IMG/VR virus record: IMGVR_UViG_3300032116_000017
DNA: 64,000 nt
Origin: an uncultured virus (IMG/VR IMGVR_UViG_3300032116_000017)
Lineage: Duplodnaviria; Heunggongvirae; Uroviricota; Caudoviricetes
Direction: 5' to 3' (one strand)
The notes beneath the pieces were generated by a model that saw only the letters and a list, made by a program, of their open reading frames with translations, did not search any database and was not told the DNA's origin. A program made the translations under genes and the position numbers. Shown here piece by piece: positions 10,170 through 61,261 of the stretch (positions are counted from its first letter, which is position 1; each line of letters begins with the position of its first letter).

Positions 10170-10643
10170 ATGGAATCTTTAGATAGGGAGTATAATCAAA
10201 TTGTTAATCTTACTAAATTCAATGTTAATTTCAGTAAGTATGTGGATAGCTGCGATCTTTTAAAACAAAGTCCTGACTATATTCTTGAGAAATATAATCA
10301 CTGGATTGGTTTTGGACCAACAGTTGAAAAGAAGTTATATACACCAGGTGATATGACAGATTTTTTCAATAAATATTGTAAAATTTGGAAAATAGACACA
10401 GAGAGTTACCATAAATTAAAAAATATACTGATGTATTTACATTATACTCAAAATTTGAACATCTTAAGGATGTCTGAAAAATTTGAAGAATATATCGGAC
10501 CAATGACGATGATATCAGATACCTCAGATAAACCAGGATTACATCATAAAACAAATGATTTCGTTAATAATATTTTAGAAGGAAATAAAAACAATATTAA
10601 AGTTATTTTAAGAAATATGAAAATTGATAATATAGTGCGATGA
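10170..10643 (+). CDS. Hypothetical protein with C-terminal RxxKIxxI tag
   Basis: Ends LRNMKIDNIVR; TATATTTG at 10158-10165, 4 nt before ATG. Confidence 0.75.
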   Translation: MESLDREYNQIVNLTKFNVNFSKYVDSCDLLKQSPDYILEKYNHWIGFGPTVEKKLYTPGDMTDFFNKYCKIWKIDTESYHKLKNILMYLHYTQNLNILRMSEKFEEYIGPMTMISDTSDKPGLHHKTNDFVNNILEGNKNNIKVILRNMKIDNIVR

Positions 10644-11011
10644 AATATAAAGACAAATCATTTTTAAAGTATCAAGAAAAACAACGTGATGGTGAAGTTG
10701 GGTATTGGTCTAATAGGTCTGAAAGACAAATTCGTAGAGAAAGAGAACACAGATTTTCAACTTTTTATCAAAAGTTTCTTATTGGAAAAATTGACAAGTA
10801 TTGGTGGAAAAACCTAAGAGATTCTGATAAAGAAAAAATTATATCACTTCACTATATACAAGTAGATGCTATTTCATCGAAAGATTTAGATAGATGGTAT
10901 TCTGATCCTGTATTTGATACTTGGTCTGAGTGGTTTGATTATATCAAGACAACTTTTAAACCAAATAAAATATCATTAAGAGAGGATAAACTCAAAGTTT
11001 TGGGTATATAA
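10640..11011 (+). CDS. Hypothetical protein with C-terminal tag
   Basis: Ends LREDKLKVLGI; ATGA overlap with previous ORF. Confidence 0.75.
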   Translation: MKYKDKSFLKYQEKQRDGEVGYWSNRSERQIRREREHRFSTFYQKFLIGKIDKYWWKNLRDSDKEKIISLHYIQVDAISSKDLDRWYSDPVFDTWSEWFDYIKTTFKPNKISLREDKLKVLGI

Positions 11012-11038
11012 TAAGTAACAATAAAAAACAAAATAAAA

Positions 11039-11518
11039 ATGAAAACAATTAAATTTATCTTTTTGGCCATAGTAGCCGCAATTTCAATGACTTCTTGTAC
11101 TGAGAATTACTCTAATGGTGAGCGTATCGGTATGATTACAAAATTCTCTCAAAAAGGACTTGTATGGAATTCTTGGGAAGGAACACTCAACACAACTCAA
11201 ACTGGTATGAACAGTGCAACTCCTTTCGAATTCTCTGTTGATAATGATGTGAACGATCCTAAAGTTATCGCTACTTTAGATTCGGCTGCAACAAATGGTT
11301 GGAAAGTCAAAATCAAATATCACGAAACTTTTGGAAAGAATTGGCTCTCTAACAGAGGTGAAACTAACTACTTTGTTAAAGAGGTTCAAGTCTTAGATAG
11401 AGATCCAATTGGTAATCTTTTCGGTGACTCTTCAAAAAATAACAAATCAAATTGTGATTGTAAAACCGGTGGAAAAGTCATTGATACTATTTATGTTGTA
11501 ATTGATAGAACTAAATAA
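11039..11518 (+). CDS. Lipoprotein
   Basis: Lipobox MTSC after hydrophobic stretch; YSNGERIG..KFSQKG..WEG motif. Confidence 0.75.
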   Translation: MKTIKFIFLAIVAAISMTSCTENYSNGERIGMITKFSQKGLVWNSWEGTLNTTQTGMNSATPFEFSVDNDVNDPKVIATLDSAATNGWKVKIKYHETFGKNWLSNRGETNYFVKEVQVLDRDPIGNLFGDSSKNNKSNCDCKTGGKVIDTIYVVIDRTK

Positions 11519-11520
11519 CT

Positions 11521-11730
11521 ATGAGAAAGGGAGACAAACTTATTTGCAGAGAGACAGTTAATAATGTCTTTGGAATGCCTCTTTTTGAAAAGGGTAAAGA
11601 ATATGAAGTTCTTTACATTGATAATGAAAAAACAGAGGTCATGGTTATATTAAACCACAACCTTTATGCAAACGAATATATGGAATATCCATTAGTATGG
11701 GTTAGTAAAAAATTTAAATCAAAATGTTAA
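11521..11730 (+). CDS. Small hypothetical protein
   Basis: Packed ORF in operon. Confidence 0.65.
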   Translation: MRKGDKLICRETVNNVFGMPLFEKGKEYEVLYIDNEKTEVMVILNHNLYANEYMEYPLVWVSKKFKSKC

Positions 11731-12152
11731 AAGATAGAATTATAGAAATCGTTAAGACACTAACAGAAGTGACTAATTCAAATATTTTGAAGTGGAACGA
11801 AGATGATCCTAAGTCAGTATCAAGAAATTATAGAAGAAAAATGATTTCCAATGGAGAGGATGGTACAAAGTATGAAATGGAAATAAAATTCATACTTAAA
11901 AATGATAATTGGCAAATTGAAGAGGATGCAAGCCTTTGGTTAAGAAATAAATTACTACCAGATGGTATATTTTATATAACAAGTTTTAAATCAGACGGTG
12001 AGACTTCACATCTTAGAGATTCAATTTTAAATAATTTTTGTAAAGATATGAATCCGTCTATAGAAGATATTGAAAATACATTGAGCGATATCGCTCGTGG
12101 AATTAGTATCTCTGAGTTCAGAGAAGGAAGACTAAATAAAATTTTAAACTAA
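11724..12152 (+). CDS. Hypothetical protein with C-terminal tag
   Basis: Ends FREGRLNKILN. Confidence 0.75.
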   Translation: MLKDRIIEIVKTLTEVTNSNILKWNEDDPKSVSRNYRRKMISNGEDGTKYEMEIKFILKNDNWQIEEDASLWLRNKLLPDGIFYITSFKSDGETSHLRDSILNNFCKDMNPSIEDIENTLSDIARGISISEFREGRLNKILN

Positions 12153-12158
12153 AAAGAT

Positions 12159-12725
12159 ATGTATATTATTAACACTAACTTAGAAGAAGTAACTAAAGAA
12201 TTTGATTTTATAAATAGCTGGATTGACACACTTTGTGATAACATTCTACATAAAGACAGGAAAAATTGCAAAATAACAATGTTTTATAATTATGGATATT
12301 TTGTACCAAAAGGTAAAGGTGTAAATCCTGAACAATTTGATATGTTTTTTGAAGATAGATTAAAATATGAGTTATCAAAAGTCAGAGTCAATGTTACTAT
12401 AAAAATCAATGAACTGATGATAACAAATCGTTTAAAGAAAGGAATGGTACCGGATGTAATTAAATCAATGGTTACTGAAATAACTAAGTATAAAATGTCA
12501 ATTGAGTGTGAGTTTCATCAAAATGAAGATATCAAAAATTCTATTCCTGAATTTGATGAGTCAGTTGTATCAATTGAAGTTATTAAACAAGAAATCGGAA
12601 CTGATAAAATTGAAGAAGATTATTTTGATTTAGATGATATCTTAGATAAAATTGCAAAAAGTGGAATAGATTCTCTAACAGATGGAGAGAAGTCATTTTT
12701 AGATAAAAAAAGTAAAGAAATGTAA
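12159..12725 (+). CDS. Hypothetical protein with C-terminal DUF6576-like helical hairpin
   Basis: Ends DLDDILDKIAKSGIDSLTDGEKSFLDKKSKEM. Confidence 0.7.
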   Translation: MYIINTNLEEVTKEFDFINSWIDTLCDNILHKDRKNCKITMFYNYGYFVPKGKGVNPEQFDMFFEDRLKYELSKVRVNVTIKINELMITNRLKKGMVPDVIKSMVTEITKYKMSIECEFHQNEDIKNSIPEFDESVVSIEVIKQEIGTDKIEEDYFDLDDILDKIAKSGIDSLTDGEKSFLDKKSKEM

Positions 12726-13540
12726 TGGATATAAATCAAATATATCAAGGTGATTGTTTAGATTTACTCAAACAGTTAGATGATAACTCTATTGACTTGG
12801 TTATCACAAGTCCACCATATGCGGATTTGAAGGTTTATATTGATAATCCTGGAATACTTGCTGGTGATTATGTTGAATGGTTTTTACCAATATGTAATGA
12901 AATCTGTCGAGTTATAAAACCGACAGGTTCTTTTATTTTAAATATAAATGATAAAGTAGAAGAAGGATTTAGACATCCTTATGTTTATGATCTTATTTCC
13001 GAAATTCATAAAAGAACGGAATTAAAAATGTTTGAGCGTCTTTTTTGGAATAAGATGAAAGGTCTTCCCAATAGAAGTAGATTTGGGGATAGAGTTGAAT
13101 ATTTATTTTGGTTCGCAAAAGAAAAAGGTTTCAAGTTTAACATAGATGAAATGAGAACTGAATATTCTGAAAAATCCATTAAGAGAATGAAGAATCCCCT
13201 TAAAAAAAGATTTGCTCGAACAGAGGAAAATCAAAATGAAAGTGAGTATAAAGAATGGAAACCAAATCCATTAGGTGCCTTACCTACAACACTTGTTAGT
13301 ATATCATCAGAATCAAAAAGAATTGCAGATAATCATGTTGCAGTTTATCCAGTTGAACTTGTTGATTACTTTATCAAAGGTTCAACTCAAGAAGGTGATT
13401 TAGTTTTGGATCCATTTATAGGAACAGGAACAACAGCGGTCTCTGCTAAAAAAATGGGTAGAAACTTTATAGGTTTTGAAAGACAATCAGAATATATCAA
13501 AGTTGCGAATAAAAGAATTTTAGATGTTGAGAATAACTAA
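12725..13540 (+). CDS. Site-specific DNA methyltransferase (N4-C/N6-A, beta class)
   Basis: GDCLDLL, VITSPPY catalytic motif before VLDPFIGTGTT SAM-binding motif. Confidence 0.92.
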   Translation: MDINQIYQGDCLDLLKQLDDNSIDLVITSPPYADLKVYIDNPGILAGDYVEWFLPICNEICRVIKPTGSFILNINDKVEEGFRHPYVYDLISEIHKRTELKMFERLFWNKMKGLPNRSRFGDRVEYLFWFAKEKGFKFNIDEMRTEYSEKSIKRMKNPLKKRFARTEENQNESEYKEWKPNPLGALPTTLVSISSESKRIADNHVAVYPVELVDYFIKGSTQEGDLVLDPFIGTGTTAVSAKKMGRNFIGFERQSEYIKVANKRILDVENN

Positions 13541-13823
13541 AACACCTAAAATAGTAAGTGTTAAATGGTACACAAAAGGAGAAATGGATCCAAGTTATAA
13601 CGGTACTGATGTAGATAGTTTTGTAATTATTCCAGGTGTTACACACTACCAACATATTTACTCTTCTCAAAAATATTTAATCTTTGATAGTAAAACAAGT
13701 TATATGGCAGTTGAATTTACATCAGAGGCTGATTTAGAAAGATACTTTATACAACTAATGAGGGAAATTAAACTTAATCAAATCACAAATGTTAATGTTG
13801 ATGTTGATAAAAAAACAAAGTAA
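13524..13823 (+). CDS. Hypothetical protein with near-terminal tag
   Basis: MREIKLNQI close to C-terminus. Confidence 0.65.
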   Translation: MLRITKTPKIVSVKWYTKGEMDPSYNGTDVDSFVIIPGVTHYQHIYSSQKYLIFDSKTSYMAVEFTSEADLERYFIQLMREIKLNQITNVNVDVDKKTK

Positions 13824-13828
13824 TATGA

Positions 13829-14065
13829 GTGAATATTTATTGCAAAAGAACAATGTTTAATCCAGATGATAATTCGGTGATATGTGCTAAAGGTAAAATA
13901 TATCAAACCGTACCATCTTCTGAATTTGAAGCAAAAACAGGTTTGGTTTTTTGGGTTTCTTCTGAAATTGAAGAAAACATACCACTAACATTAAAACTTT
14001 ATGATAAATATTTCACAACTATTGATGAAATGAGGAATAATAAAATAAACGAAATACTAAAATGA
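13829..14065 (+). CDS. Small hypothetical protein with C-terminal tag
   Basis: GTG start; ends MRNNKINEILK. Confidence 0.7.
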   Translation: MNIYCKRTMFNPDDNSVICAKGKIYQTVPSSEFEAKTGLVFWVSSEIEENIPLTLKLYDKYFTTIDEMRNNKINEILK

Positions 14066-14823
14066 AAATTGTAAAATATCTTTCTGATACTGAAATAATG
14101 AATTGGAATAATAGACTTGAGAATACACCTTATATTGTTATTCCAAGATATCACACTCATTCATCTTTTCCTACAATAGTTTTTAAACAAAAAACAACAA
14201 CTGGTTTAGGAAATTTTCTAAATGATCCACAATCAGAAGTAATAACACTGGATCCACATATGAAATTTCAGTTTTCATTTTCAGTTGCTAAAAATCGTGT
14301 AGATAATTTTTTTAATATATTCAACAAATGGTTTTCTAAAATAGAAACCAAAACTTATTTTCAAGATAGAAGTAATCGAGAGAAAATAGATGATATAGAA
14401 GTATCTGATTCTATTATTAAATCAAAGAAGCAAATTGAACACAAAGTAAAAGAAAAAGAATATACTAAATTCATTTACTATTTTGAAGGACATCTTTCTT
14501 CAATTATGGCTTATGTGATGTTCTTAGAAGACTCTATTGATATTTTCTCTTCTATATGGGGATATGATGAGTCAGGATCAGAACACCTACTGACTAAATT
14601 TAATATTGGTGATTGTGTAACAAAAGTTGGTGACCAATCAGAAGATTATCTCATTTTAGATTTCGAGCCAATAAAAAGTGGTAAAGATTTTTCTTTAGAT
14701 TATGAAATTTGTAAAATGATTACAAAAGGACAGATTATAAAATATGGAAATTCAGAAGTAGTCAAAGAAAAAGATATAACCTGGTCTCGTAATAATAGAA
14801 TTGATGATATTTTAGATAATTGA
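14062..14823 (+). CDS. Hypothetical protein with C-terminal tag
   Basis: Ends SRNNRIDDILDN. Confidence 0.75.
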   Translation: MKIVKYLSDTEIMNWNNRLENTPYIVIPRYHTHSSFPTIVFKQKTTTGLGNFLNDPQSEVITLDPHMKFQFSFSVAKNRVDNFFNIFNKWFSKIETKTYFQDRSNREKIDDIEVSDSIIKSKKQIEHKVKEKEYTKFIYYFEGHLSSIMAYVMFLEDSIDIFSSIWGYDESGSEHLLTKFNIGDCVTKVGDQSEDYLILDFEPIKSGKDFSLDYEICKMITKGQIIKYGNSEVVKEKDITWSRNNRIDDILDN

Positions 14824-14854
14824 TTTGATATTCTAAAAATTAGTATTATATTTG
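14824..14854 (+). promoter_or_regulatory. Bacteroidota-type promoter
   Basis: TTTG 14824-14827, 19-nt spacer, TATATTTG 14847-14854, ATG 4 nt later. Confidence 0.75.
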
Positions 14855-14858
14855 TAAA

Positions 14859-15368
14859 ATGGATAAGTGGAGTAATCTACAATTTAAAGATTTTCTCGAA
14901 GGTGAAAGACTGAATTGTTATTGGTTCTGGTATAAAGGTAAAATCACAAGAAGAAAGAATTTAGATGGAGAAATTTACGAACAAAACCTTTCTGGTAAAT
15001 GTGAATGGAATGGAATAAGATTGCAAAATGGATTTAATCATTGTTTTAATATTTTAACTAATAAATATATGAGAGGATTAAAAGAAGGAAAATACAACGG
15101 TCAAACTAAAGCAGAGTTTGAAAAGAACAAAGTTAGAGTTAGTGATATTTGGATAAAATCCGGTGCTGATATTGAGAAGGCTAAGTCTTTATCAACAACA
15201 CAAGCAAATCGAATTACTGACGAGTGGAAGGCTCTAAATAGAGCTTTTGCTGCTAAAGAAATGGGTTACGAAGAAATATTTGAGATTTTCTTTCATCGTG
15301 CTTATGAATTAGGTTCAGTTTCTAAATTAGAATACCGAGAATATAAATTAGATAAGCTTGGTATCTAA
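14859..15368 (+). CDS. Hypothetical protein with C-terminal tag
   Basis: Ends YREYKLDKLGI. Confidence 0.75.
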   Translation: MDKWSNLQFKDFLEGERLNCYWFWYKGKITRRKNLDGEIYEQNLSGKCEWNGIRLQNGFNHCFNILTNKYMRGLKEGKYNGQTKAEFEKNKVRVSDIWIKSGADIEKAKSLSTTQANRITDEWKALNRAFAAKEMGYEEIFEIFFHRAYELGSVSKLEYREYKLDKLGI

Positions 15369-15655
15369 TGAAAATAATTAAAACTAAATTTCTTTGCAAG
15401 AATAGTAGTCAAACTGTTACGAAAGGACTTCCTATGTATGTTAAAGATAGGTTTATTGAAGGAAAATGGTATGATGGTGAATATGAAGCCTGGAACTTCC
15501 ATGATAGTTACAGACTAAATGGTGGATGGCGTAGATACTGGGTTATAAATGAAAAAGGTGAAAAAGAAGAAATTCACAGAGCTCACATGAATGCAATTTT
15601 TGAAACAGATATAGAAAAGTTAAGAGATAATAAAATAAATGAAATACTAAAATAA
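15368..15655 (+). CDS. Hypothetical protein with C-terminal tag
   Basis: Ends LRDNKINEILK. Confidence 0.75.
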   Translation: MKIIKTKFLCKNSSQTVTKGLPMYVKDRFIEGKWYDGEYEAWNFHDSYRLNGGWRRYWVINEKGEKEEIHRAHMNAIFETDIEKLRDNKINEILK

Positions 15656-15656
15656 A

Positions 15657-16055
15657 ATGAGCGAAGAAACAAAACAACTAAAAGTATCCAATGAGTTTGT
15701 TGATATTTTTAAAAACTTCAATGTTGTAAATAAAGTTGAAGAAATGAAAGCACTTTCTAAGAAAGAACTATATTTATTATTAACACTCTGCTTGGATAAG
15801 CACGATGATGAACAACCAACTGTTGTTTATAACTTTCAACCGTTTAGAGAACAAGTGATGGAGTTATTTGAAATTCAGGATGATAAAGAAACTCTCAATC
15901 CGGTTCTAAAAGAGCTTATTGAAGAAAGCGGTGATAAATACATTGAAACTGATAATATTGTTGATGAAACAGGAAATAAACTTCCAGAGCCTTTAACAAA
16001 AGAGGAAGTGAGAGATGTAAAAATTAATATCATCAATAGTGATGATTCAAAATAA
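15657..16055 (+). CDS. Hypothetical protein with near-terminal tag
   Basis: VRDVKINII near C-terminus. Confidence 0.7.
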   Translation: MSEETKQLKVSNEFVDIFKNFNVVNKVEEMKALSKKELYLLLTLCLDKHDDEQPTVVYNFQPFREQVMELFEIQDDKETLNPVLKELIEESGDKYIETDNIVDETGNKLPEPLTKEEVRDVKINIINSDDSK

Positions 16056-16081: not shown

Positions 16082-17329
16082 ATGCAAGAAGATATTCAAA
16101 ATCCAGTAACTGAAGAAGTAAGAACTGAACCAATCATTGGTGAGTTTAAACCAAAACGTAAATTCTTAAACTTTGTTTCTGCTGTAAATGGTGCTCGTGT
16201 TCGTTTCATTCGTGATGTTGCCTTTCTTAAAGGTGAAAAACTATCTGGTGTTTTAGAAGGGGCTATATTTAAAATAACTATTTGTGATGAAGGTACAATT
16301 AACATTGAAGAACAGGAAGGAACTAATCTTTCTGATAAATCAATGATCCAAAGACTTCTTAATGAAATCGATGAAATCGATGTTACTGGTTATGCTCAAA
16401 AGTTTGTTGTCGCTGGATTAGAGTTCGCTGATGTAAAAGGTGACCGTTGTTACTTAGAAGTAGAACATCAAAAACCAATTGATAAATTAAAATCACTTTT
16501 TGATGAAGAGGAAAAAGTTGAGGTTTCTGAAAAGAGTTTGAGTTTACTTGATGATTTATTTGGGAGTGATGAAGAAGAGTGGGATGAGGATCATGCACTT
16601 TCAGAAGTGATGAATTCTATGTTAGATGATCTATCAGAAGAAGATGTTAAGACAATTATTGAAGCAAATGAAAATCCAGCTGAACCTAATGATAAATTAA
16701 AAGAGGCTGCTGAGTCATATATGGAAAAACAATTCCGTAAAATGCATGAAGCAAAAATCATTGAGTTAGAATACCGTATTGAAGAAACTCAGAGAGAAAT
16801 CATTCGATATAAAAATGATGCTAAACAAGCTGAGTCAAAGGCTGAAGAAAAAGTTGAAGCACTTGGTATTTTAGAAACTCGATTAGAAACAATGAAACCA
16901 GGTGACGAACCTAATGGTTATGTATTTTTTGTATCTGAGGAAATGAAAGATATGGAAGAACTTGATGAAACCGAAGCTAAAGTAGCTGCTAAGATTGCAG
17001 ATATTATGAAGTTGAAGAAAGACGTTTTGGTTAAGATGTTGACAGAAGGCTACTACAAAATCAAAATTGCTAAGTCCGATGATATTTCAAATCAAGACTT
17101 TGAATTAGACAAAGAAATCTATAATAAGATTATGACTTTAGATATTGATGGTAAGATGTCACTTACTGATAGTGAGTTTCGATACCGTGGTAAATTAAAC
17201 TGGCATCAACTTGTCTCTAAAATGATTAAATCTGGATTTGCTCAAGATGAAGAGTTTGATAAACTTTGCAACTCTAATTCTTATGAAAGTCACGAAGAAG
17301 AAAAAGAATCTGATAAAACTGAAGAGTAA
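16082..17329 (+). CDS. Acidic coiled-coil hypothetical protein
   Basis: 415-aa ORF; TAAATTTG at 16061-16068 upstream. Confidence 0.75.
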   Translation: MQEDIQNPVTEEVRTEPIIGEFKPKRKFLNFVSAVNGARVRFIRDVAFLKGEKLSGVLEGAIFKITICDEGTINIEEQEGTNLSDKSMIQRLLNEIDEIDVTGYAQKFVVAGLEFADVKGDRCYLEVEHQKPIDKLKSLFDEEEKVEVSEKSLSLLDDLFGSDEEEWDEDHALSEVMNSMLDDLSEEDVKTIIEANENPAEPNDKLKEAAESYMEKQFRKMHEAKIIELEYRIEETQREIIRYKNDAKQAESKAEEKVEALGILETRLETMKPGDEPNGYVFFVSEEMKDMEELDETEAKVAAKIADIMKLKKDVLVKMLTEGYYKIKIAKSDDISNQDFELDKEIYNKIMTLDIDGKMSLTDSEFRYRGKLNWHQLVSKMIKSGFAQDEEFDKLCNSNSYESHEEEKESDKTEE

Positions 17330-17331: not shown

Positions 17332-17718
17332 ATGAATATGGGGTTTACAAGATATTGGGAATTTGAGAGATTAAATAGTGAGAAGTTTAAAGAGTTCTCT
17401 AATATCTGTCAGTTACTTATAGATAATATGGATATTCCACTTGATGATGTCACCGTTAATGAAGCACAAGTAAGATTCAATGGAGTTGATGATGATGGTC
17501 ATGAAACATTCAATTTCTCTTTAAATAAAGATGGATTTAACTTTTGTAAAACAGCTACTAAACCTTACGATGAAGTTGTGTATGGTTGTCTTTATATTGC
17601 TAAGTTAATATTCGAAGATAGTGTAAAGATAAATCAAGATTGTAAAGAAGACGAACCTTATGTAAAAAAAGTAATATCTATTCTAAGAGAAAATAAACTT
17701 AATCAACTATTAAAATAA
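17332..17718 (+). CDS. Conserved-type phage protein with C-terminal tag
   Basis: MGFTRYW...FNG...HETF...FCKT..KPYD motif; ends LRENKLNQLLK. Confidence 0.7.
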   Translation: MNMGFTRYWEFERLNSEKFKEFSNICQLLIDNMDIPLDDVTVNEAQVRFNGVDDDGHETFNFSLNKDGFNFCKTATKPYDEVVYGCLYIAKLIFEDSVKINQDCKEDEPYVKKVISILRENKLNQLLK

Positions 17719-19793: not shown

Positions 19794-20360
19794 ATGAAAG
19801 TAATTTTTTTGGATTTTGATGGTGTTATGTGTCTCTCTGAGCAATGGGGTGGACGAGCTAAAAAAATGCTAAAGTTTCAAAGAGAATTTCCGGGTTCAAC
19901 TGAAGATGATATGCCAGCTTGGATTAAGCTAGATAATTTTGATTTTAAGGCAACTAAAGTTCTTAACTCTATTTTATTACATCACGATGTTGAGATAGTT
20001 TGCTCTTCAGATTGGAAATTATTTGCTACTTTAGATCAACTTCAAGATATGTTTGATAAATACGGTGTGATTAAATCACCAATAGATGTCACACCAACTC
20101 TTGTTAAGTATGAGTCTAAATCTCAATTCACACAAAGTGAATTAGAGCAATGGAGAGTTAAAGAAATTAAAACGTGGTTAGATTTACATCCAGAAGTAAC
20201 ACACTGGGTTGCTGTTGATGATATGGACTTAGGTGAGAAGTTTGGTCCTATTTCTGGAAATTCCAATGGTGGTCTAACTAACTTCATATTAACTAAGCAG
20301 TATATTGGAATTAAACAATCCGGAATAAAAGAAAAAATCATTAAGTTCTTAAATGATTAA
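19794..20360 (+). CDS. HAD-superfamily phosphatase, Swiss-Army-knife RNA-repair-like type
   Basis: IFLDFDGV, SSDW, VAVDD motifs; TATATTTG 4 nt upstream. Confidence 0.8.
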   Translation: MKVIFLDFDGVMCLSEQWGGRAKKMLKFQREFPGSTEDDMPAWIKLDNFDFKATKVLNSILLHHDVEIVCSSDWKLFATLDQLQDMFDKYGVIKSPIDVTPTLVKYESKSQFTQSELEQWRVKEIKTWLDLHPEVTHWVAVDDMDLGEKFGPISGNSNGGLTNFILTKQYIGIKQSGIKEKIIKFLND

Positions 20361-20850
20361 TGTTTTAGAAATGGACATGAGTATTGAATACAAGTTCGCG
20401 TGGAATGTAGCTGCTCGAGCTTGTTTCAGTATTTTCTATATCCTACCAGACTGTATGTTACTTTATAGACATCAAGTGTCGGAACCATATATCTGGACTA
20501 AATTCGGATGTAATCACCCTGATAAAATAGATTTAGTAAAACTAGATGGTAAAAATCTAATGTTATTTCATGTTGATGTTTATAAAGAAAAAACTCATAA
20601 ATTTAAAGACCTAATTGATTATTGTCAGTCTAATAACATTGATATCTGGATTCCTTTTCCACTTAAAAACCTTTGGAGAACTGAAGAGCCTCATCTTCAG
20701 ATTATGAAAGATATACTAGATAATTATCAATACAGCACTTACGATTTAACTGGAATGAACTACAGGAGTGAAAATGAAATAAGTAGATTGGTTAAAGAAA
20801 AAACGAAACCTATATTAAGAGATATAAAATTAAGAAACTTATTTGATTAA
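20353..20850 (+). CDS. Hypothetical protein with C-terminal tag
   Basis: Ends LRDIKLRNLFD. Confidence 0.7.
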   Translation: MINVLEMDMSIEYKFAWNVAARACFSIFYILPDCMLLYRHQVSEPYIWTKFGCNHPDKIDLVKLDGKNLMLFHVDVYKEKTHKFKDLIDYCQSNNIDIWIPFPLKNLWRTEEPHLQIMKDILDNYQYSTYDLTGMNYRSENEISRLVKEKTKPILRDIKLRNLFD

Positions 20851-35373: not shown

Positions 35374-35403
35374 TCCTTTGATAACTTTTTTAATATAATA
35401 ATT

Positions 35404-35844: not shown

Positions 35845-35845
35845 G

Positions 35846-36004: not shown

Positions 36005-36008
36005 CATT

Positions 36009-41131: not shown

Positions 41132-41490
41132 TGTTTGAATTAAACTCACATATGATTCAAAAAATGGGGTGGTTTTCATATCACCCTTCTATTGGACTTG
41201 GGTTTGATTTGCCTGGTGTTTTTCATAGTGATCCTTTTGTTAGATTTTTTTTCATTGACAAGTCTAAAAATGTTGTTTTCATTATTAAAGAAATGACTCC
41301 TGATGAAAAACAAAAGACAAAAAAAGAATATAAATTTATAGATTTTAAAACACCAATAAACATAAAAGCTACTAAGATGAATATAGTAGAATTTAACTCA
41401 AATGAAGAATTATGGAAACTGGTTATTGAAAATGAGGCTTGTGGTGAAAATTATCAAAGACACTTTAGACTAAACAAAATATTAAAATGA
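41131..41490 (+). CDS. Hypothetical protein with C-terminal tag
   Basis: Likely start ATG 41131 (TGATG overlap); ends QRHFRLNKILK. Confidence 0.7.
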   Translation: MFELNSHMIQKMGWFSYHPSIGLGFDLPGVFHSDPFVRFFFIDKSKNVVFIIKEMTPDEKQKTKKEYKFIDFKTPINIKATKMNIVEFNSNEELWKLVIENEACGENYQRHFRLNKILK

Positions 41491-43569: not shown

Positions 43570-43791
43570 ATGAAGTACAAACCCGGTGATATAGTCATTA
43601 AAACCACAGGTGGTAATAAAATGACAATCTTTGATAAGATATCCGATGGTGTTTATAAATGTCTTTGGTTTGTTGAAAACTCAATGAAGGAATCCGTATT
43701 TAATGAGGAGGAATTAGTTACTTTAAATGAGTATAAACGGTTTCTGAAAACGGAAGAAAGAGAAGATAAGATTAATCAATTACTGGGTTAA
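43570..43791 (+). CDS. YodC/DUF2158-like small protein with C-terminal tag
   Basis: PGDIV...GG.KMT...CLWF...F..EEL; ends EREDKINQLLG. Confidence 0.7.
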   Translation: MKYKPGDIVIKTTGGNKMTIFDKISDGVYKCLWFVENSMKESVFNEEELVTLNEYKRFLKTEEREDKINQLLG

Positions 43792-48856: not shown

Positions 48857-49201
48857 ATGAAACTTGACATAAATGAAGTATATCATAACTATATTGTTAG
48901 AGTGGTAATTTTTTCACTCTTCACTTATAAGAGATTAGTTAGGCAGCCAAATGTATATAAACAATCTGTTCTTTCGTTTGTGACTAAAAGAGTTGCATGG
49001 AAAATACATCTTGTTATAGATACTGGTCTTCAAATGTCAAAAGATGAAGAAAGAGATATAGTATTAAATGAGTTACTCGAAGGAATTGAATCTGATTATC
49101 TAACAACAGTAACTGTTACTTTTACAACACCACTTAAAGAAATAACAATAGAGGTTGATTTAAAAGATGAAGATAAATACCAAAACTTTCTGTACTTATA
49201 A
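48857..49201 (+). CDS. Hypothetical protein
   Basis: TAATATATA 4 nt upstream; internal ERDIVLNELL. Confidence 0.65.
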   Translation: MKLDINEVYHNYIVRVVIFSLFTYKRLVRQPNVYKQSVLSFVTKRVAWKIHLVIDTGLQMSKDEERDIVLNELLEGIESDYLTTVTVTFTTPLKEITIEVDLKDEDKYQNFLYL

Positions 49202-49888: not shown

Positions 49889-49925
49889 TTTTACTTTATT
49901 AAATTTTTTTTAGTATATTTGTAAT

Positions 49926-50141
49926 ATGTTTATCTGTGTTAGTAATACATCAAATAGAAGTGAATTAGAAATAGGAAAATACTATGACTTATTTAAACAT
50001 GAGCAACACCCAAAAGTTGTTTGGGTAAAAATACCCGATTCATCTAATACTGTTGGTTACAGAACTATTCAATGTTATTTAGCTGACTTTAAAAATAAAG
50101 GTCAATGGAGAAATGATCAGATTGATAAGATTTTAGATTAA
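49926..50141 (+). CDS. Small hypothetical protein with C-terminal tag
   Basis: Ends WRNDQIDKILD; TATATTTG 4 nt upstream. Confidence 0.7.
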   Translation: MFICVSNTSNRSELEIGKYYDLFKHEQHPKVVWVKIPDSSNTVGYRTIQCYLADFKNKGQWRNDQIDKILD

Positions 50142-51472: not shown

Positions 51473-51513
51473 ACTATATTGTATATATTAAAATTGTTTA
51501 TTATATTTGTCGT

Positions 51514-52368
51514 ATGAGAGGATTTAGAATTTACAACAAACAAGAACTATTCAATTCGATTGAAAAAATCACGGTTGAAAAAATTGAAGACCAAGTTATC
51601 ACAAAGTATAACGGTCGTGTCACACAGGTGGCAAATGTCTCAAAAAGATATGAGATATTTGATATTGTTAAATATCTAAAAGATAAGATTGAACTTATTG
51701 AACAAAACTTTACTATTTCTAAATATCAATTGTTGATTAGAAAAGGTCAACAATACCTTCAACTTATTTCTGATAGTGTTGAAATCGGAGGTATTCGTTT
51801 TTACAAATCCTTTTACATACTTAACTCAACTGATAAATCACGTAGGCTTAGTTTCTATGCGGGTCTACACTCTGAAAAATATTATTTCATCGGAGCAAAC
51901 AATGTAGGTATGTCAAGAAAACATCTTACTGGTGTCACTGAAGCTGCTGATGTTGCTTCAACCGCATTGAATGGTGAAACTTTTGATGAACAAATTAAAG
52001 CTCTTCAAAACTTAGTCGGTCACCGTATTCAACTCTCTAAAATACGTGAGGTTATCTTAGGTGATAAAGAGGAAATTCCACAAATCAATCATCGTAAATT
52101 TGATGCGTTTAAGAACTCTATTCGTTACGCTGATAGTGATGGTCTTATCAGACTTACCAGAGAACAACGTTCTCAATTATATACTGACTCTGAAAGAATG
52201 ACAGAAGTTAAAGAAGATTTTTACTTAGATGCTTTCTGGGTTTTCGGAACTTATATGAGATTGTTTAACAAACAAGACTCACATATCATTAAAAATGAAA
52301 CAGACCGTATTATGAAGATTACTCAATGGGCTGTTAGAAACTCAGTGTTGGAGGCACTTGGTATCTAA
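51514..52368 (+). CDS. Hypothetical protein (possibly DUF932-like) with C-terminal tag
   Basis: VSKRY, LNSTDKS; ends VRNSVLEALGI; TATATTTG 4 nt upstream. Confidence 0.65.
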   Translation: MRGFRIYNKQELFNSIEKITVEKIEDQVITKYNGRVTQVANVSKRYEIFDIVKYLKDKIELIEQNFTISKYQLLIRKGQQYLQLISDSVEIGGIRFYKSFYILNSTDKSRRLSFYAGLHSEKYYFIGANNVGMSRKHLTGVTEAADVASTALNGETFDEQIKALQNLVGHRIQLSKIREVILGDKEEIPQINHRKFDAFKNSIRYADSDGLIRLTREQRSQLYTDSERMTEVKEDFYLDAFWVFGTYMRLFNKQDSHIIKNETDRIMKITQWAVRNSVLEALGI

Positions 52369-55887: not shown

Positions 55888-55917
55888 AAAAAAAGAGAGT
55901 ATTTAACTCTCTTTTTT
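55888..55917. terminator. Bidirectional terminator
   Basis: AAAAAGAGAGT-ATTTA-ACTCTCTTTTT. Confidence 0.65.
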
Positions 55918-56379
55918 CTCTGACTTTTCAACATATTCCGAAAAAATATTCATTTCTTTAAATACCTCTAAAATTTGTGATGTTATTTCAAATTTCTCAG
56001 CAGCATAGACTGTTTCAATTTTACTAATAACAGCATCTATGGAGTTTTTGATTGAATATTCTGAAACTATTTTTTCTATATCTTCATAAACCTCTTCTTT
56101 TAATTTTTGACCCATCTTTGATAGTTTATATTTTGCATCTTTATCAATTTCAACCATTTGACTTTGTAGCCTCTGAAATTTTTCCATTCTTTGTTCTTGA
56201 GTAAGGTTGTCAACAATAATACCACCCTGAGATGCAGCAATGATATTTTGCATTTCTCTTCTCATTGGTTCAATACTTTCAAGTATTTGTGCCTTTTCTT
56301 TGTCAATCTCAGCAACTCCTTTTTGATACTTATCAAAGTGTCTTGTTAGTAATTCAAAATCTACGACTCTAATTTCCAT
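55903..56379 (-). CDS. OmpH/Skp-like chaperone lacking signal peptide
   Basis: IRVVDF...long coiled coil...IDAVI...VYA..KFEIT..IL pattern. Confidence 0.65.
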   Translation of the reverse strand: MEIRVVDFELLTRHFDKYQKGVAEIDKEKAQILESIEPMRREMQNIIAASQGGIIVDNLTQEQRMEKFQRLQSQMVEIDKDAKYKLSKMGQKLKEEVYEDIEKIVSEYSIKNSIDAVISKIETVYAAEKFEITSQILEVFKEMNIFSEYVEKSEKKES

Positions 56380-56414
56380 AATTATAATATTTTTCTATTA
56401 TATATGAAATATCA

Positions 56415-58109
56415 TCAAGAGTTTAGATAATCCACAGCTTGGGTATATCTAATTAGTAAATTTTGATCTTCCGCCAAAGATAAGTCATCATAAGCAAAAA
56501 TTGATGCCGTTGCAAAGCCAGTTAATGATGTTAAATCTACTTTATGTACTTCAAGATATGTTTTTCTTGCTCCTATAATTTTAGCAAATTGTCGATTTAA
56601 CAATAAATATTTTGCATCAGGTGTAAATATTTCTCTTTCAATGATTTTTCCTAAATAAGTGTTCCTGTTTGTGTCAATTTTGTAATTTAGTATTTGATTT
56701 TTACCTTTATAGTAATTAACTCTGTAGTAATAATTACTTGATTTACTTAGATTAGTTAATAAAACAGAGGCGGTAGTTCCATAAATTTGTTTTCCTAATT
56801 TATACTTTTGTTCTATAGTACTGAATGTGCTACTTTTCGAAAGTTCAAATTCGTATCCATTTTCATTATTTACAGACATTGGTCCTGTATTGATAGTTGG
56901 CCAATATGCAGTTCCAAATGAATCTGAGGATATGACCTCACCGGATTGAGTTTGACCATATAATGTTCTTACTCTGTAGTAATAAGTTCCGGTAGAAAGT
57001 CCAGATATTGAATACGTATTCGAAACACTACTAGTAATATATGGTAAAGTATTCGACAATGTACCTAAAGTCAAACTGTAATTAGGTAATAAAGATGAGA
57101 ATGAACTAAATGTTGATATATCAAAAGAATATGCATCAGCTGAATTATTTGTCGGCCATGTAAAACTAGCAGTACTGCCACTAGCTGATAATATCAACTG
57201 ATTAGTAAAAGTAGTTAAAGTATATCTTGAAGTATAATAATAAGTAGTATTTGGTGATAAATCAAATACAACAAGAGAAGCGGTATTTCCAGAAACATTA
57301 TAAGATGGTGGATTTGAACCTGTTCCTAACTTTATGGAATTATAACTAGATAATTTTGTTTCAAAAGAACTTGATGTTGATATGTTTAATATGTATCCAG
57401 TTGTTACCGGGTCTGTATTCCAAACTATTGACGCGGTTGGATTAGAAGACATAAAAGAAGCCGAGTAAGTAAAATTCTTTAAAATATTTTCTCTTTCTTC
57501 TGTGTAAATCCACCATTGTTTAGTCAAATCTAAATTTATTTGAGTTTGAATCTCACTAAATGTTCCAACTAAGAAATTCATATATTCTACCGCGTTTGAT
57601 GGTACAAAAGTGTCATTATCATCAACCCATTCAGATAGATAAAGTTTAAAAGAGTATAGATTATCTCTAATGATATTCATATTAACGGAATAATCTTCTT
57701 CTTTTGTTAGTATAAAGGAACTAGTGAGCGAGGTAATAGAAAAAGTTGTCGATAATGGATCAGATAGAGATAAATTTATATTATTTATATTTAGTGAGTA
57801 AATATCGACCGATGTTTGATAAACTTTCTTCTTATCATACATCAGTTTTAACTTCTTCAAAAAAGGTGTATTAGTTTCAAAACAAATCTGTTCCCAAGTA
57901 GTTCTTTTAATCTCAGCCAAATTTGTTACCTCATCAATATTAATTTTGTAATAGTAATACAAACATTGTTGAAAAGCTTGAAAATCTCCTTTATTGACTA
58001 ATTCGTCAATATACTTATAATATTCTGAAATATTATCTTTGCCCTTAGATGCTAATTTATCAAGGCTATTTTGAATTTTTGCTAATTTTCTTTGATAGAG
58101 ATTTGCCAT
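56415..58109 (-). CDS. FN3-like repeat protein (putative structural/late)
   Basis: Three LS..T/S.YYY(R) beta-sandwich units; TAATATATA 6 nt upstream. Confidence 0.6.
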   Translation of the reverse strand: MANLYQRKLAKIQNSLDKLASKGKDNISEYYKYIDELVNKGDFQAFQQCLYYYYKINIDEVTNLAEIKRTTWEQICFETNTPFLKKLKLMYDKKKVYQTSVDIYSLNINNINLSLSDPLSTTFSITSLTSSFILTKEEDYSVNMNIIRDNLYSFKLYLSEWVDDNDTFVPSNAVEYMNFLVGTFSEIQTQINLDLTKQWWIYTEERENILKNFTYSASFMSSNPTASIVWNTDPVTTGYILNISTSSSFETKLSSYNSIKLGTGSNPPSYNVSGNTASLVVFDLSPNTTYYYTSRYTLTTFTNQLILSASGSTASFTWPTNNSADAYSFDISTFSSFSSLLPNYSLTLGTLSNTLPYITSSVSNTYSISGLSTGTYYYRVRTLYGQTQSGEVISSDSFGTAYWPTINTGPMSVNNENGYEFELSKSSTFSTIEQKYKLGKQIYGTTASVLLTNLSKSSNYYYRVNYYKGKNQILNYKIDTNRNTYLGKIIEREIFTPDAKYLLLNRQFAKIIGARKTYLEVHKVDLTSLTGFATASIFAYDDLSLAEDQNLLIRYTQAVDYLNS

Positions 58110-58142
58110 ATAATTTATATATTAAAAATCTCAATCTATAAG

Positions 58143-59273
58143 TTATTGCTCTTCTCCTCCACCTAATTGTTTTTCAATTTCAGCGATTTTATCTTTATTA
58201 ACATCAGGATCTTTGTAAAGGTCAGCTATATCACTTAGTTTTTTGATTGCTTCAGGATTCTTAGTTTTTACATCTTTAAGTGTATTTACTAAGTCTTCTT
58301 GTCCTTCTGCTTTTGCTTCTACTTTTCCTAATAAATCCTCAGTTTTCTTTTTAAAATCTGCATCTTCAAAGGAAACAACATCACCGTTAATATCCTTGAC
58401 TTTTTTAATACCTATCATTTCTTTATCTTGAAGATCTTTCATAGGTCCTTCATTAGGTTTTTTCTTATCCTCATCAGTTATTTTTTTCCATTCATCTTCA
58501 TTGAATTTATCTCTTTTATAGATAACTGTATCACCAGCTTTGTAACCTCCTTCTGGTCCAGCTTCCGGAACTTCTTTTCCTAATGACTCAACGTATTTAT
58601 CAACGTCTTCGTCTTTAATTTCGGATAAATATTTATCAAGTCTCGGAACTAAAATTTTATTTACCCAATCAATAGATAATTGTTTCATCTTTTTAGTATC
58701 TTTTCCAGCTGGTAGAATTGCCTTTTTAAATTCCGGAAGGTGAGTTTGATCTTTCATATCAACAACAATCTTTTTGTCATCTACCTTAGCGTCTGTTCCA
58801 ACTTTTAAATCAGGTCCACCCGCATATTTATAATCTTTAATAGCTCTATTTCTTATTGTTTCCATATAGAATTTAACTATATCGACTGTCGGTGTATCTT
58901 TACCAAAAGATTTCAAAAGTCCATCATAAAGAGTTTGAAGACCTTGTTTTCCAAGTGCTCCCAATTGAGGATCGAGTATGTTTTTAATCAGATCTAAACA
59001 TGCTTGTTCATTAATATCTGTATCTTTTTTCTTTATAAATTCGTCCATTACTCCTTTAAGTAAGTAACTATCATCTTGTGGATTCAATGGATTTTTATCA
59101 ATCCATGCTTCAATTTCTTCAGGTGCTGGGTTTTCTCCTAATTTTTTAATTTCCTCTACGGCTTTATTCCACATATTTTTGAAAAAATTCAAAACACCAG
59201 ATAGGAGTTCTTCATTTACTGATTTTAGGTTTCTATCTTTTTTAAATGACTCAAATTTCTTAATATAGCTCAT
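58143..59273 (-). CDS. Leader-tagged K/D/E-rich protein (putative virion-internal)
   Basis: MSYIKKFESF...SVNEELL; TAATATATA upstream. Confidence 0.7.
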   Translation of the reverse strand: MSYIKKFESFKKDRNLKSVNEELLSGVLNFFKNMWNKAVEEIKKLGENPAPEEIEAWIDKNPLNPQDDSYLLKGVMDEFIKKKDTDINEQACLDLIKNILDPQLGALGKQGLQTLYDGLLKSFGKDTPTVDIVKFYMETIRNRAIKDYKYAGGPDLKVGTDAKVDDKKIVVDMKDQTHLPEFKKAILPAGKDTKKMKQLSIDWVNKILVPRLDKYLSEIKDEDVDKYVESLGKEVPEAGPEGGYKAGDTVIYKRDKFNEDEWKKITDEDKKKPNEGPMKDLQDKEMIGIKKVKDINGDVVSFEDADFKKKTEDLLGKVEAKAEGQEDLVNTLKDVKTKNPEAIKKLSDIADLYKDPDVNKDKIAEIEKQLGGGEEQ

Positions 59274-59332
59274 TACATAATATTATTTTTACAAACTATA
59301 TATTATTTTTTTTATATAAAAAATAAAAAATT

Positions 59333-59788
59333 ATGAACTATTTATCAAAAGTATCAGAGTTTCATAAAACCTTTGACGCTCCAATATTAGAAAGTCCTCA
59401 AATTCCATCTGATGAAAGATGTCAATTAAGAGTTTCACTACTTCAAGAAGAATTAAATGAATTAAAACAAGCTATTGATGATAATGATATTGTTGAAATC
59501 GCAGATGCTCTCTGTGATTTACAATATGTCCTTTCTGGTGCAATCTTAGAATTTGGTTTAGGTGAAAAGTTTGATGAACTTTTTGATGAAGTACAAAGGA
59601 GTAATATGTCTAAGGCTTGTAGTTCAATACAAGAAGCAATCGAAACAATATCACACTATAAAAAGAAAGATAGTACTGAATCATCATATAAAATGATTGG
59701 TGAAAAATGTGTAGTGTATAGAGACTCTGATAACAAGGTGTTGAAATCTATAAACTATTCACCTGCTGATTTAAAAAATAAAATTTAA
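59333..59788 (+). CDS. MazG-like / PRA-PH nucleoside triphosphate pyrophosphohydrolase
   Basis: EFHKTF, LQEELNEL, EIADALCDLQYV, EVQRSNMSK, KVLKS. Confidence 0.88.
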   Translation: MNYLSKVSEFHKTFDAPILESPQIPSDERCQLRVSLLQEELNELKQAIDDNDIVEIADALCDLQYVLSGAILEFGLGEKFDELFDEVQRSNMSKACSSIQEAIETISHYKKKDSTESSYKMIGEKCVVYRDSDNKVLKSINYSPADLKNKI

Positions 59789-59790
59789 GA

Positions 59791-60636
59791 ATGGAAAATT
59801 TAGGAATTATAGGACAGGGTTTTGTCGGAGGTGCAGTTTATCAAGGAATGAAAAACTTCTTCAATGTTTATACTTTTGATATAAATGGAAATTGTACAGA
59901 GTCATCACTTTTTAATTTAATCGAAAAAGTTGATATGACATTTTTATGTTTACCAACACCAATGAGAAAAACAGGAGAATGTGATTTATCAATTGTTAAA
60001 AATTGTCTCTCTCAAATAGATTTGATTGTTAAATCATTAGATAAAAAAGATTTTATTGTTATTATAAAATCAACAATTCCACCGGGAACAACAGAAATGT
60101 TAAATAAAGAAAACGAAAATATACATATCGTTTTCAATCCAGAATTTTTAACAGAAGCCAATGCTGTTGAAGATTATAAAAATCAAAATAGAATTATTGT
60201 CGGAGGTGACAGACCTTATTCATCAAAAGTTAAAAATATTTTTGAAAAGGCTTTCCCAAAAGTTCCTATTGTAAAGACTTCCTCAACAATTGCAGAAATG
60301 ATTAAATATGTTACAAATACTTTTTTAGCAACTAAAGTTTCATTTGCTAATGAAATGTATCAAATATGTGAGGGGTTGAATATTGATTATGATAAAGTGA
60401 TTGAATACGCTCGTTATGATGATAGATTGGGTAATTCTCATTGGTCGGTTCCTGGACCGGATGGCGACCTGGGATACGGTGGTCATTGTTTTCCAAAAGA
60501 TGTAGCAGCTCTAAAATATGTCGGTGACTCAATGAATGTTTCAACGACAATGTTATGTGCAACTATGGACAAAAATAAAGAAGTTAGAACAGACAAAGAT
60601 TGGGAAAGCCAAATAGGAAGAGCAGTTTCAGAATAA
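59791..60636 (+). CDS. UDP-glucose/GDP-mannose dehydrogenase family (no C-terminal domain)
   Basis: GIIGQGFVG, CLPTP, KSTIPPG, NPEFL, GYGGHCFPKD. Confidence 0.88.
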   Translation: MENLGIIGQGFVGGAVYQGMKNFFNVYTFDINGNCTESSLFNLIEKVDMTFLCLPTPMRKTGECDLSIVKNCLSQIDLIVKSLDKKDFIVIIKSTIPPGTTEMLNKENENIHIVFNPEFLTEANAVEDYKNQNRIIVGGDRPYSSKVKNIFEKAFPKVPIVKTSSTIAEMIKYVTNTFLATKVSFANEMYQICEGLNIDYDKVIEYARYDDRLGNSHWSVPGPDGDLGYGGHCFPKDVAALKYVGDSMNVSTTMLCATMDKNKEVRTDKDWESQIGRAVSE

Positions 60637-60639
60637 AAT

Positions 60640-60888
60640 ATGAATCCTGATATGTCGGATATTCTTATGATGAACTCTAAGTTCTATGGTGATTATTACT
60701 GTAAGAAAGTAAAAGATTTTTTTGATGACGGTCAAATAGTAACTGTTTATTCACACTACTCATATAGACTTTTTACAATAGGAAAAAATAAAAGAATATT
60801 CAGAATTCATCATACAGATTTTGGAACTACACTTTTTACAAAAGAAGAATGGAGAAATAAAAAAATTAATAGAGTTTTAAAAAAATAA
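60640..60888 (+). CDS. Small hypothetical protein with C-terminal tag
   Basis: Ends WRNKKINRVLKK. Confidence 0.7.
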   Translation: MNPDMSDILMMNSKFYGDYYCKKVKDFFDDGQIVTVYSHYSYRLFTIGKNKRIFRIHHTDFGTTLFTKEEWRNKKINRVLKK

Positions 60889-60904
60889 TTTCTATATTTG
60901 CCAT

Positions 60905-61261
60905 ATGTTATCGAATAAAGAAAAGAAACGAAGACAACACGAGAAAGAACTGAAGTCACTTAGAAATAAGATGAGTAAAAACATCATATGGTTTGACGCT
61001 CTCAATACCACTCAACAATATGACCTTCTTTTTGCTTGGAAGAGAGAGAAAAAATCAAACACACGAACTAAACCTCAAAAGAAAACAATTATAAGAAAAG
61101 TGGGTGGATTCTTGAATGGTAGATATCAGACTATGAGAAAAGAAATCGAAATAGTGTCTTATCCACCAAACTTTAAACATTTTCTTAAAAATATGAAACC
61201 AAAATTCAGCGTAAGTGTCTCAAAAATGAGACAGGCTCAATTAAAACATCTATTGAAATAA
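60905..61261 (+). CDS. Basic hypothetical protein with C-terminal tag variant
   Basis: Ends MRQAQLKHLLK; TATATTTG 4 nt upstream. Confidence 0.7.
   Translation: MLSNKEKKRRQHEKELKSLRNKMSKNIIWFDALNTTQQYDLLFAWKREKKSNTRTKPQKKTIIRKVGGFLNGRYQTMRKEIEIVSYPPNFKHFLKNMKPKFSVSVSKMRQAQLKHLLK

Follow-up and report, generated by a model that had tools for sequence, protein, structure and literature searches.

A C-terminal peptide tag shared by unrelated proteins of large AT-rich phages, a candidate docking label

Why would a phage end so many of its proteins, whose bodies are unrelated, with nearly the same short peptide? This question was raised by a stretch of 64,000 nucleotides (hereafter the window) from the uncultured tailed phage record IMGVR_UViG_3300032116_000017 of IMG/VR (G000), in which an initial annotation had noticed a common C-terminal tag on 17 proteins. 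The window covers bases 95,874-159,873 of the 175,894-bp record (29.5% G+C, estimated to be about 73% complete), and coordinates refer to the window unless marked C1, L or G. Our analysis demonstrated that the tag is a real feature under selection at the peptide level. It is also modular, helical by prediction, found mainly behind early-type promoters and common to more than one lineage. We lean toward the reading that it is a portable docking or address label, which would plug diverse early proteins into one conserved reader.

The gene call was made anew over the entire record and gave 248 open reading frames (ORFs). The core of the tag is R-[DEN]-x-K-[IL]-[NDK]-x-[IL]-[LGF], usually followed by zero to two residues. 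When a strict pattern (R..[KR][IL]..[IL][LGIF]) was counted as terminal at a distance of four residues or less from the C-terminus, 26 of the 248 proteins were tagged and two internal matches were found over 52,095 positions, while the mean expectation was 0.05 after shuffling of whole proteins (maximum 2, n = 500) and 0.064 after shuffling of the last 30 residues (maximum 1, n = 500). A loose pattern gave 33 terminal and 6 internal matches (0.11 and 0.16 after shuffling), that is, about one in eight proteins tagged, and exactly one residue follows the core in 22 of these 33. No match was found within the first 14 residues of any of the 248 proteins. Thus, the terminal enrichment over shuffled sequences (26-33 of 248 versus 0.05-0.16) is not explained by AT-biased composition.

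All 17 peptides listed in the initial annotation are present, on the + strand in every case. In the first cluster, they are RNMKIDNIV+R (core+following residues) at 10611..10643 (end of ORF 10170-10643, 157 amino acids, aa), REDKLKVLG+I at 10979..11011 (10640-11011, 123 aa), REGRLNKIL+N at 12120..12152 (11724-12152, 142 aa), RNNKINEIL+K at 14033..14065 (13853-14065, 70 aa), RNNRIDDIL+DN at 14788..14823 (14062-14823, 253 aa), REYKLDKLG+I at 15336..15368 (14859-15368, 169 aa) and RDNKINEIL+K at 15623..15655 (15368-15655, 95 aa). Two members of the list proved to be near-terminal rather than terminal, namely REIKLNQIT at 13761..13823 with 11 residues after it (13524-13823, 99 aa) and RDVKINIIN at 16011..16055 with five (15657-16055, 132 aa). 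Further downstream are RENKLNQLL+K at 17686..17718 (17332-17718, 128 aa), RDIKLRNLF+D at 20818..20850 (20353-20850, 165 aa, with a convergent gene next), RHFRLNKIL+K at 41458..41490 (41131-41490, 119 aa), REDKINQLL+G at 43759..43791 (a 73-aa protein with a DUF2158, SH3/KOW-like barrel, 43570-43791), RNDQIDKIL+D at 50109..50141 (49926-50141, 71 aa, also with a convergent gene next), RNSVLEALG+I at 52336..52368 (51514-52368, 284 aa), RNKKINRVL+KK at 60853..60888 (60640-60888, 82 aa) and RQAQLKHLL+K at 61229..61261 (60905-61261, 118 aa). The impression that all carriers lie on the + strand was an effect of the window, where 15 are on the + strand and none on the − strand (73 and 18 genes, respectively), and was not borne out in the entire record, with 25 on + and 8 on −. 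As for the internal copies reported, those in 31492-32079 and 48857-49201 are present, and that in 30902-31492 is outside the pattern used here. The ORFs 30902-31492 and 31492-32079 are neighbouring paralogs with a common C-terminal domain (..SVEW[YF]..), and a tag-like RETKLNSIF stands at residue 73 of 195, ahead of this domain. The internal motif of these paralogs looks like a once-terminal tag that was buried through gene fusion.

Is the conserved entity the peptide or the nucleic acid? We compared ortholog pairs between G000 and four relatives, in which identity was 72% in the tag residues and 58% in the bodies. Synonymous-codon differences at identical residues were 0.35 in the tag, 0.34 just upstream of it and 0.40 in the bodies, and the conserved I/L positions use six to nine different codons (position 4 is coded by TTA, ATT, ATA, TTG, ATC, CTA, GTA, CTC or CTT). 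Since the synonymous sites of the tag drift like those elsewhere and its amino acids are better kept, selection acts on the peptide, in agreement with the protein-level conservation suggested previously. This drift and the variety of codons make it highly improbable that the tag is an element at the level of nucleic acid or translation, such as the start region of the next gene, a recombination site or a nascent peptide aiding termination-reinitiation. Such an element would fit the finding that a co-directional gene follows within 20 nt for 133 of 210 tagged genes (63%) compared with 42% of untagged genes, and that, within the early-type units described below, 27% of coupled and 16% of uncoupled genes are tagged (p = 0.0096). 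It would also fit the marked preference for one residue after the core and the numerous ...LGI endings coded as GGAATATGA, which contains the ATG of the next gene. On the other hand, no coupled gene follows 37% of tagged genes, 17% close a unit or face a convergent gene and the bias within early-type units is modest, which makes it unlikely that the tag serves only the next gene's start region; the distance from tag to stop also differs among orthologs.

The bodies carrying the tag are indeed unrelated, as BLASTP among 39 tag-trimmed carriers found only a single, weak pair (E = 3.8e-4). With a median of 118 aa versus 183.5 aa over all genes, carriers are short; they are heterogeneous in charge and isoelectric point, and tagged small proteins do not evolve faster than other small proteins (55.5% versus 57.6% identity, p = 0.74). 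A Pfam body domain was found in 1 of 40 G000 carriers (DUF2158) and a PHROG match in 2 of 40, never across the tag; weak Pfam matches were found in 5 of 113 carriers of at least 85 aa from four other records. When Pfam was searched (E ≤ 10) with the terminal 35 aa of 36 carriers, no family was matched by more than one member. A tail profile gave no match among 1.84 billion proteins, because the motif is too short to reach significance.

Two carrier families document how the tag was added to its bodies. In the family of the protein at 17332-17718, the tag is kept in 60 of 62 close homologs, the remaining two being cut before the end, with R and K invariant and a variable acidic linker ahead of it, while it is found in 0 of 37 distant homologs. 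A viral scan with this protein alone retrieved only distant relatives, all untagged, and its tblastn matches from cultured phages end ahead of the tag. In the DUF2158 carrier at 43570-43791, Pfam DUF2158 covers residues 6-49 of 73 and leaves a 24-residue tail beyond it; REDKINQLL is kept in 120 of 120 homologs among the matches listed, on contigs reaching 611 kb, while the residues after the core vary. Moreover, 12 ortholog pairs are tagged on one side only (by the limit of four residues), several of them with a displaced or weakened motif on the other side. The clearest case is the untagged 415-aa protein at 16082-17329, whose orthologs of 590 and 581 aa are tagged. Since distant homologs of both carrier families lack the tag and orthologs gain or lose it, the tag is modular, consistent with the initial proposal of its addition to unrelated bodies. 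A second portable C-terminal module was noticed in the same genomes, Pfam DUF6576 (...SLTxxEKxFLD...), which ends three otherwise different proteins (12159-12725, 32138-32647 and L006:14455-15075) and two more in the unrelated lineage G012.

The suggested helicity of the tag is supported by prediction in both of two AlphaFold2 models. The 17332 model has a helix at residues 108-120, a three-residue break and a short helix at 124-127, with a terminal pLDDT (predicted local distance difference test) of 87-91, and Foldseek with this model gave nothing at E ≤ 0.001. In the model of the DUF2158 carrier, a beta body is followed by a single helix at 52-72, in which the tag continues the long helix of the body with confidence declining from 90 through 84 to 76. 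This helix is an appendage, because the Foldseek matches of the model, SH3/KOW-like barrels, span only about 52-57 columns. In a helical wheel drawn with our own geometry, R0, [IL]4, [IL]7 and [LF]8 would lie on one face, with K3 and the acidic or amide position +1 at its borders.

Such a helix may also act without any reader, as a self-contained structural or oligomerisation element that caps its own body or bundles with other tags. The confident helix-turn-short helix of the 17332 model is compatible with this, as are N/D at +5 and G at +8, which suit helix-capping positions, and the AT-rich codons that ease evolution of such peptides. We consider it quite unlikely, in view of identical residues kept on unrelated folds, distant homologs of the same bodies that fold tag-free, and the DUF2158 tag at the end of a protruding 21-residue helix of falling confidence. 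A membrane-targeting amphipathic helix, as in MinD and FtsA, where an unbroken hydrophobic face binds lipid, would place early proteins at the inner membrane; the extreme C-terminal place, basic and hydrophobic residues (endings such as KLKKLF) and a likeness to the MinD tail are in its favour. Judged by its sequence, however, the tag offers only three hydrophobic positions, and the invariant Arg stands amid the hydrophobic face; position +1 is acidic or an amide, +5 is N or D, and aromatics are scarce, with F at +8 in just 9%. Membrane segments are no commoner among carriers (3 of 39) than among other proteins (26 of 209), and membrane targeting seems very improbable.

When are the tagged genes expressed? 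Two classes of promoter-like motifs were distinguished, TTG...TAnnTTTG, which we take to be the sigma-A consensus of Bacteroidota with TAnnTTTG as its −7 element, and a phage-specific (T)AATATATA near start codons. An element of the former class (TATATTTG, 10158..10165, + strand) precedes the 10170 cluster, 12 nt ahead of its first tagged gene, and others lie upstream of other tagged genes (14847-14854, 49914-49921 and 51502-51509). Examples of the latter class lie upstream of 21136, 26850, 27740, 54349 and 56415. When genes of six records were crudely assigned to promoter units, tags were found on 84 of the 381 in TAnnTTTG units and on 12 of the 635 in AATATATA units (odds ratio 14.7, p = 1.8e-26), which agrees with the earlier remark that carriers mostly follow host-type promoters. 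The two motifs probably mark early and late gene classes.

The late-type class is marked by another terminal peptide, an N-terminal leader (MKYIKSYKLFES or MKxLKRFNEEL) on about 14 of the 248 G000 proteins, for example at 21136-21948, 21962-22687 and 22684-23544 in the window and at C1:32068-32805, 35344-36662 and 59843-60316. One leader gene was assigned to TAnnTTTG units and 31 to AATATATA units (other genes, 296 and 593). It had been stated that no carrier has the leader; the two are near-exclusive, and tag and leader hardly ever occur together. With its h-F-x-E cleavage-like end, the leader presumably resembles the capsid-targeting sequence (CTS) of T4, which is N-terminal, resides on late internal proteins of the virion and is cleaved. 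The tag shares with the CTS the use of one short terminal peptide as an address on unrelated phage proteins, but it is C-terminal and distributed 84:12 between the early and late classes, and a CTS-like role is filled by the separate leader. No shell domain of an encapsulin or a bacterial microcompartment was found among 243 G000 proteins scanned with Pfam in this 73% complete record.

How far does the tag reach beyond one genome? Loose tags were found in 17 of 211 proteins of G001, 11 of 92 of G002, 38 of 408 of G009 (281 kb, 94% complete) and 81 of 649 of G008 (476 kb, 97% complete), on orthologs of the G000 carriers and also on other proteins. G012 (155 kb, 83% complete) represents a separate lineage with matches for only 22 of 248 G000 proteins (median 38% identity); 68 of its 232 proteins match the other lineage (clade A), and these are patchy accessory genes. 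It carries the tag on 30 of 232 proteins, with a position-by-position profile close to that of clade A. Thus, the scan of related phages recovered the terminal tag in five other large AT-rich records across two lineages, on 8-13% of their proteins. A DNA pattern for the tag, which detects only AGR arginine codons and exactly one residue after the core, gave 1-23 matches in each of nine viral records (0-2 in the reversed control), and a scan of the collection gave clear tags on contigs of 17-476 kb among the matches listed. We conclude that large AT-rich phages of Flavobacteriia-type Bacteroidota carry the tag in two lineages or more. An extremely dense case is the 84,646-bp IMG/VR contig L421, where 18 of 49 genes over about 20 kb (18478-39146) are tagged.

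Other viruses of similar composition are tag-free. Loci of distant homologs had no tag in 189 genes, and L015, at 25% G+C, had none in 18 genes. Similarly, 58 viral loci that surround more distant ClpC genes, many of them at 28-33% G+C, were tag-free over 1227 genes. These tag-free AT-rich phages indicate that AT-richness alone does not produce the tag, and they also speak against the reader-free structural element discussed above. Among 31 genomes of Bacteroidota, no excess of the DNA pattern was found: 26 genomes of the family with the best match to the TonB receptor of G000 gave 136 matches versus 142 for the reversed pattern, and five others showed no excess. Within the limits of the AGR-codon pattern, the sampled 31 bacteria do not use the tag. 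Eukaryotic viruses are known to mimic host motifs such as LxxLL and PDZ-binding tails, and the tag is similar to them as a short helical hydrophobic-x-x-hydrophobic-hydrophobic motif that ends unrelated viral proteins and would reach one cellular domain. It differs in this lack of excess in the Bacteroidota genomes, so that mimicry of a host ligand is unsupported at this sensitivity.

From these results, we infer docking on a common reader. Through the conserved face (R0, K3, hydrophobic 4, 7 and 8, polar 1 and 5), every carrier would dock on the same conserved reader, which should be found in every infected cell. Since two lineages with few shared genes have an indistinguishable tag, the reader is probably encoded by the host or supplied by both host and phage. 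In its behaviour, the tag recalls terminal peptides that serve docking or addressing elsewhere, namely the XB tether of SspB, ssrA degrons, clamp-binding tails and the CTS of T4, and cargo peptides of encapsulins or microcompartments, and it has the defining features of none of those that could be compared here.

Our leading guess for the reader is an AAA+ unfoldase/protease of the Clp type. SspB binds the N-domain of ClpX by a C-terminal XB peptide, ssrA is a C-terminal degron, and the N-terminal domain of ClpC binds adaptors and phospho-arginine. As a specific form of the docking label, the tag might serve as a degron or SspB-like tether whose reader, ClpC or ClpX of the host helped by the N-domain-less ClpC or the ClpP of the phage, feeds ClpP. 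As a degron, it would limit the lifetime of early proteins and clear them at the switch to late functions; as a tether, it would let the variable bodies bring bound host targets to the protease. The likeness lies in a short conserved peptide at the extreme C-terminus, portable between unrelated bodies, in phages that invest in Clp components. The ClpC of clade A is a true one (E = 2.7e-222 to ClpC of S. aureus; L002:7502-9616, in G000 C1:7502-9619); it lacks the N-domain and retains the M-domain and the VGF loop for ClpP docking. It is located in an early-type operon alongside tagged genes, is present in all four clade-A records above 150 kb and is 63-68% identical to full-length ClpC of Bacteroidota; homologs of about 700 aa form more than 120 metagenome clusters. 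G012 and G008 encode a true ClpP. The C-terminal position of the tag on early-class genes, after a variable acidic linker in the 17332 family, also suits a Clp signal, although in the DUF2158 carrier the tag prolongs a helix of the body. The Clp ATPase is a core gene of moraphages (PMC12619734), and a precedent is Gp53 of SPO1, an early host-takeover protein that engages ClpC in an adaptor-like manner and is a single 25-kDa protein without a shared tag (PMC6873191).

Nevertheless, we regard a Clp signal as unlikely, if conceivable. The tag differs from the SspB tail in sequence, in its predicted helical form with Arg invariant and Lys conserved, and in residing on 8-13% of the proteome rather than on one adaptor. 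It is not fixed at the free carboxyl end as ssrA is, for 0-4 residues follow the core (1-5 in orthologs, 6-15 in some), and its co-occurrence with phage ClpC is not obligatory. Phage ClpC as the obligatory reader was ruled out by these co-occurrence data. Similarly truncated ClpC genes (659-687 aa) were also seen in several other phage lineages. At four loci of one such lineage (L327, L334, L337 and L351), a conserved gene directly upstream of a ClpC of 659-660 aa ends in ...FDGSG[LM][RK]GWWD, and its product is a possible dedicated partner of that ClpC. Apart from this one conserved upstream ortholog (ending FDGSGLRGWWD), no other shared tail was found in the more distant ClpC loci.

A bolder form of the same idea is a viral toolkit of degraders, in which 30-80 variable bodies would each bind a different host protein and the helix would tether all of them to one AAA+ protease, reinforced by the phage with N-domain-less ClpC and/or ClpP. 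Host proteolysis would thereby be aimed early at many targets together, for example defence systems. We hold this to be a long shot. If true, phages would have a natural counterpart of targeted protein degradation, based on a proteome-wide short linear motif.

Chaperones are another candidate machine, as the tag might recruit DnaK/DnaJ to fold or hold early proteins. DnaK, DnaJ and GrpE are encoded by G000 and conserved in G001, G008 and G009, grpE is separated from dnaJ by two tagged genes, with another just downstream of dnaJ, and basic residues beside leucines are typical of DnaK-binding peptides. However, the strict R0 and K3 and the helical i, i+3, i+4 spacing are unlike the loose extended motif of DnaK. 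Moreover, G012 uses the same tag, and neither DnaK/DnaJ/GrpE nor ClpC nor MoxR/VWA was found in it by BLAST (E < 1e-3) or by Pfam on its 113 proteins of at least 150 aa. Some moraphages encode DnaK and DnaJ, with DnaK in only 8 of 25 (PMC12619734). A chaperone signal is thus very unlikely. The complete DnaK/DnaJ/GrpE set of G000 is located at C1:47375-50436 and 63421-65304, and two convergent tagged genes share a terminator hairpin at about C1:47362-47375.

The sliding clamp is a third hub to which unrelated proteins dock by C-terminal peptides, as in the acidic or aromatic tails of gp43, gp33 and gp55 of T4 and RB69 and in the PCNA-interacting protein (PIP) box. The tag shares with them the terminal position and the hydrophobic spacing (4, 7 and 8), and G000 has T4-like genes, including those for a gp32-like single-stranded DNA-binding protein (SSB) and a gp6-like baseplate wedge. 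By the features of the PIP box, the tag lacks the typical Q at position 1 (D, E or N in 82%, Q in 6%) and is poor in aromatics at 7-8 (F at position 8 in 9%). It is basic and is found on dozens of early-class proteins without assigned function, not on proteins of replication or transcription; recognisable replication proteins, for example the 5'-3' exonuclease, topoisomerase subunits and SSB, are untagged. A clamp ligand is, therefore, extremely improbable.

One unknown viral family was considered as the reader itself. It has invariant GxLGNSCM, GRALxW, MDRxYT and YPYMDTF and several paralogs per genome, at 53015-54337 in the window, at C1:67241-68482 in G000 and in three copies in G012. It is the only unknown family common to all tag-using records, and tags are nearby at 47 of 77 of its viral loci, with none where G+C is 0.36 or above. 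The family has no match in Pfam or in the sequences of PDB, and in the ESM Atlas it falls into viral clusters without a Pfam family.

Several observations weigh against the docking label that we favour. The distance from core to C-terminus varies (0-4 residues, sometimes 5-15), which argues against recognition of a free carboxylate as in ssrA-type degrons and also counts against the Clp signal. In the 17332 model, the confident tag may pack on its own body rather than remain free. With regard to Clp as the reader, the 58 tag-free loci have ClpC homologs below 70% identity, many of them also without the N-domain, the tagged G012 is without ClpC, and the surroundings of the clade-A ClpC are poor in tags (15 of 592 genes). 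The early and late classes were assigned by promoter-like motifs only, and the coupling bias of 63% versus 42% leaves some room for a translational role.

The gene content gives the setting of the tag. By Pfam and PHROGs, G000 is a large, very sparsely annotated tailed phage with T4-like genes (topoisomerase II subunits and RNA ligase besides the SSB and baseplate wedge) and host-type genes of Bacteroidota, for sorting domains of the type IX secretion system (T9SS), a SusC-like TonB receptor and OmpH. It also encodes a sigma factor, NusG and a MoxR-like ATPase with a VWA/metallopeptidase partner, in addition to the chaperones and the ClpC-type AAA+ protein. Envelope genes of host type are clustered at 391-9064, 44344-48692 and 55903-59273, with an S8 peptidase, T9SS-sorted proteins (Por_Secre_tail, CHU_C), OmpH and a protein like PhoD/purple acid phosphatase. 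Their SusC-like TonB-dependent receptor is 52% identical to that of a single bacterial genome (2.2 Mb). Phosphoribosyl pyrophosphate synthetase was rejected as an indicator of the host, with just 40-49% identity to Bacteroidales. A PrkA/DUF444 (YeaH)/SpoVR trio with very strong Pfam scores is located at C1:70988-77343. This content fits the moraphages, large freshwater phages of Flavobacteriia described recently with T4-like core genes and a core Clp ATPase (PMC12619734), the comparison being made by genes with the published description only. The word 'C-terminal' is absent from the main text of that description, and our literature searches gave no published description of the tag, in line with the initial view that it is undescribed.

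Finally, a label carried by 8-13% of the proteome unites dozens of early genes without assigned function in one functional class, and it could serve as a marker of early host-takeover genes when phage genomes from metagenomes are annotated. In large phages, known functions are the exception among early genes, and we know of no earlier use of a short linear motif on a proteome scale in a bacterial virus. The 10-residue peptide provides a direct experimental handle on the machine common to the carriers. Should a host hub or protease prove to be the reader, the tag would represent an undescribed route of phage takeover in cells of Bacteroidota.

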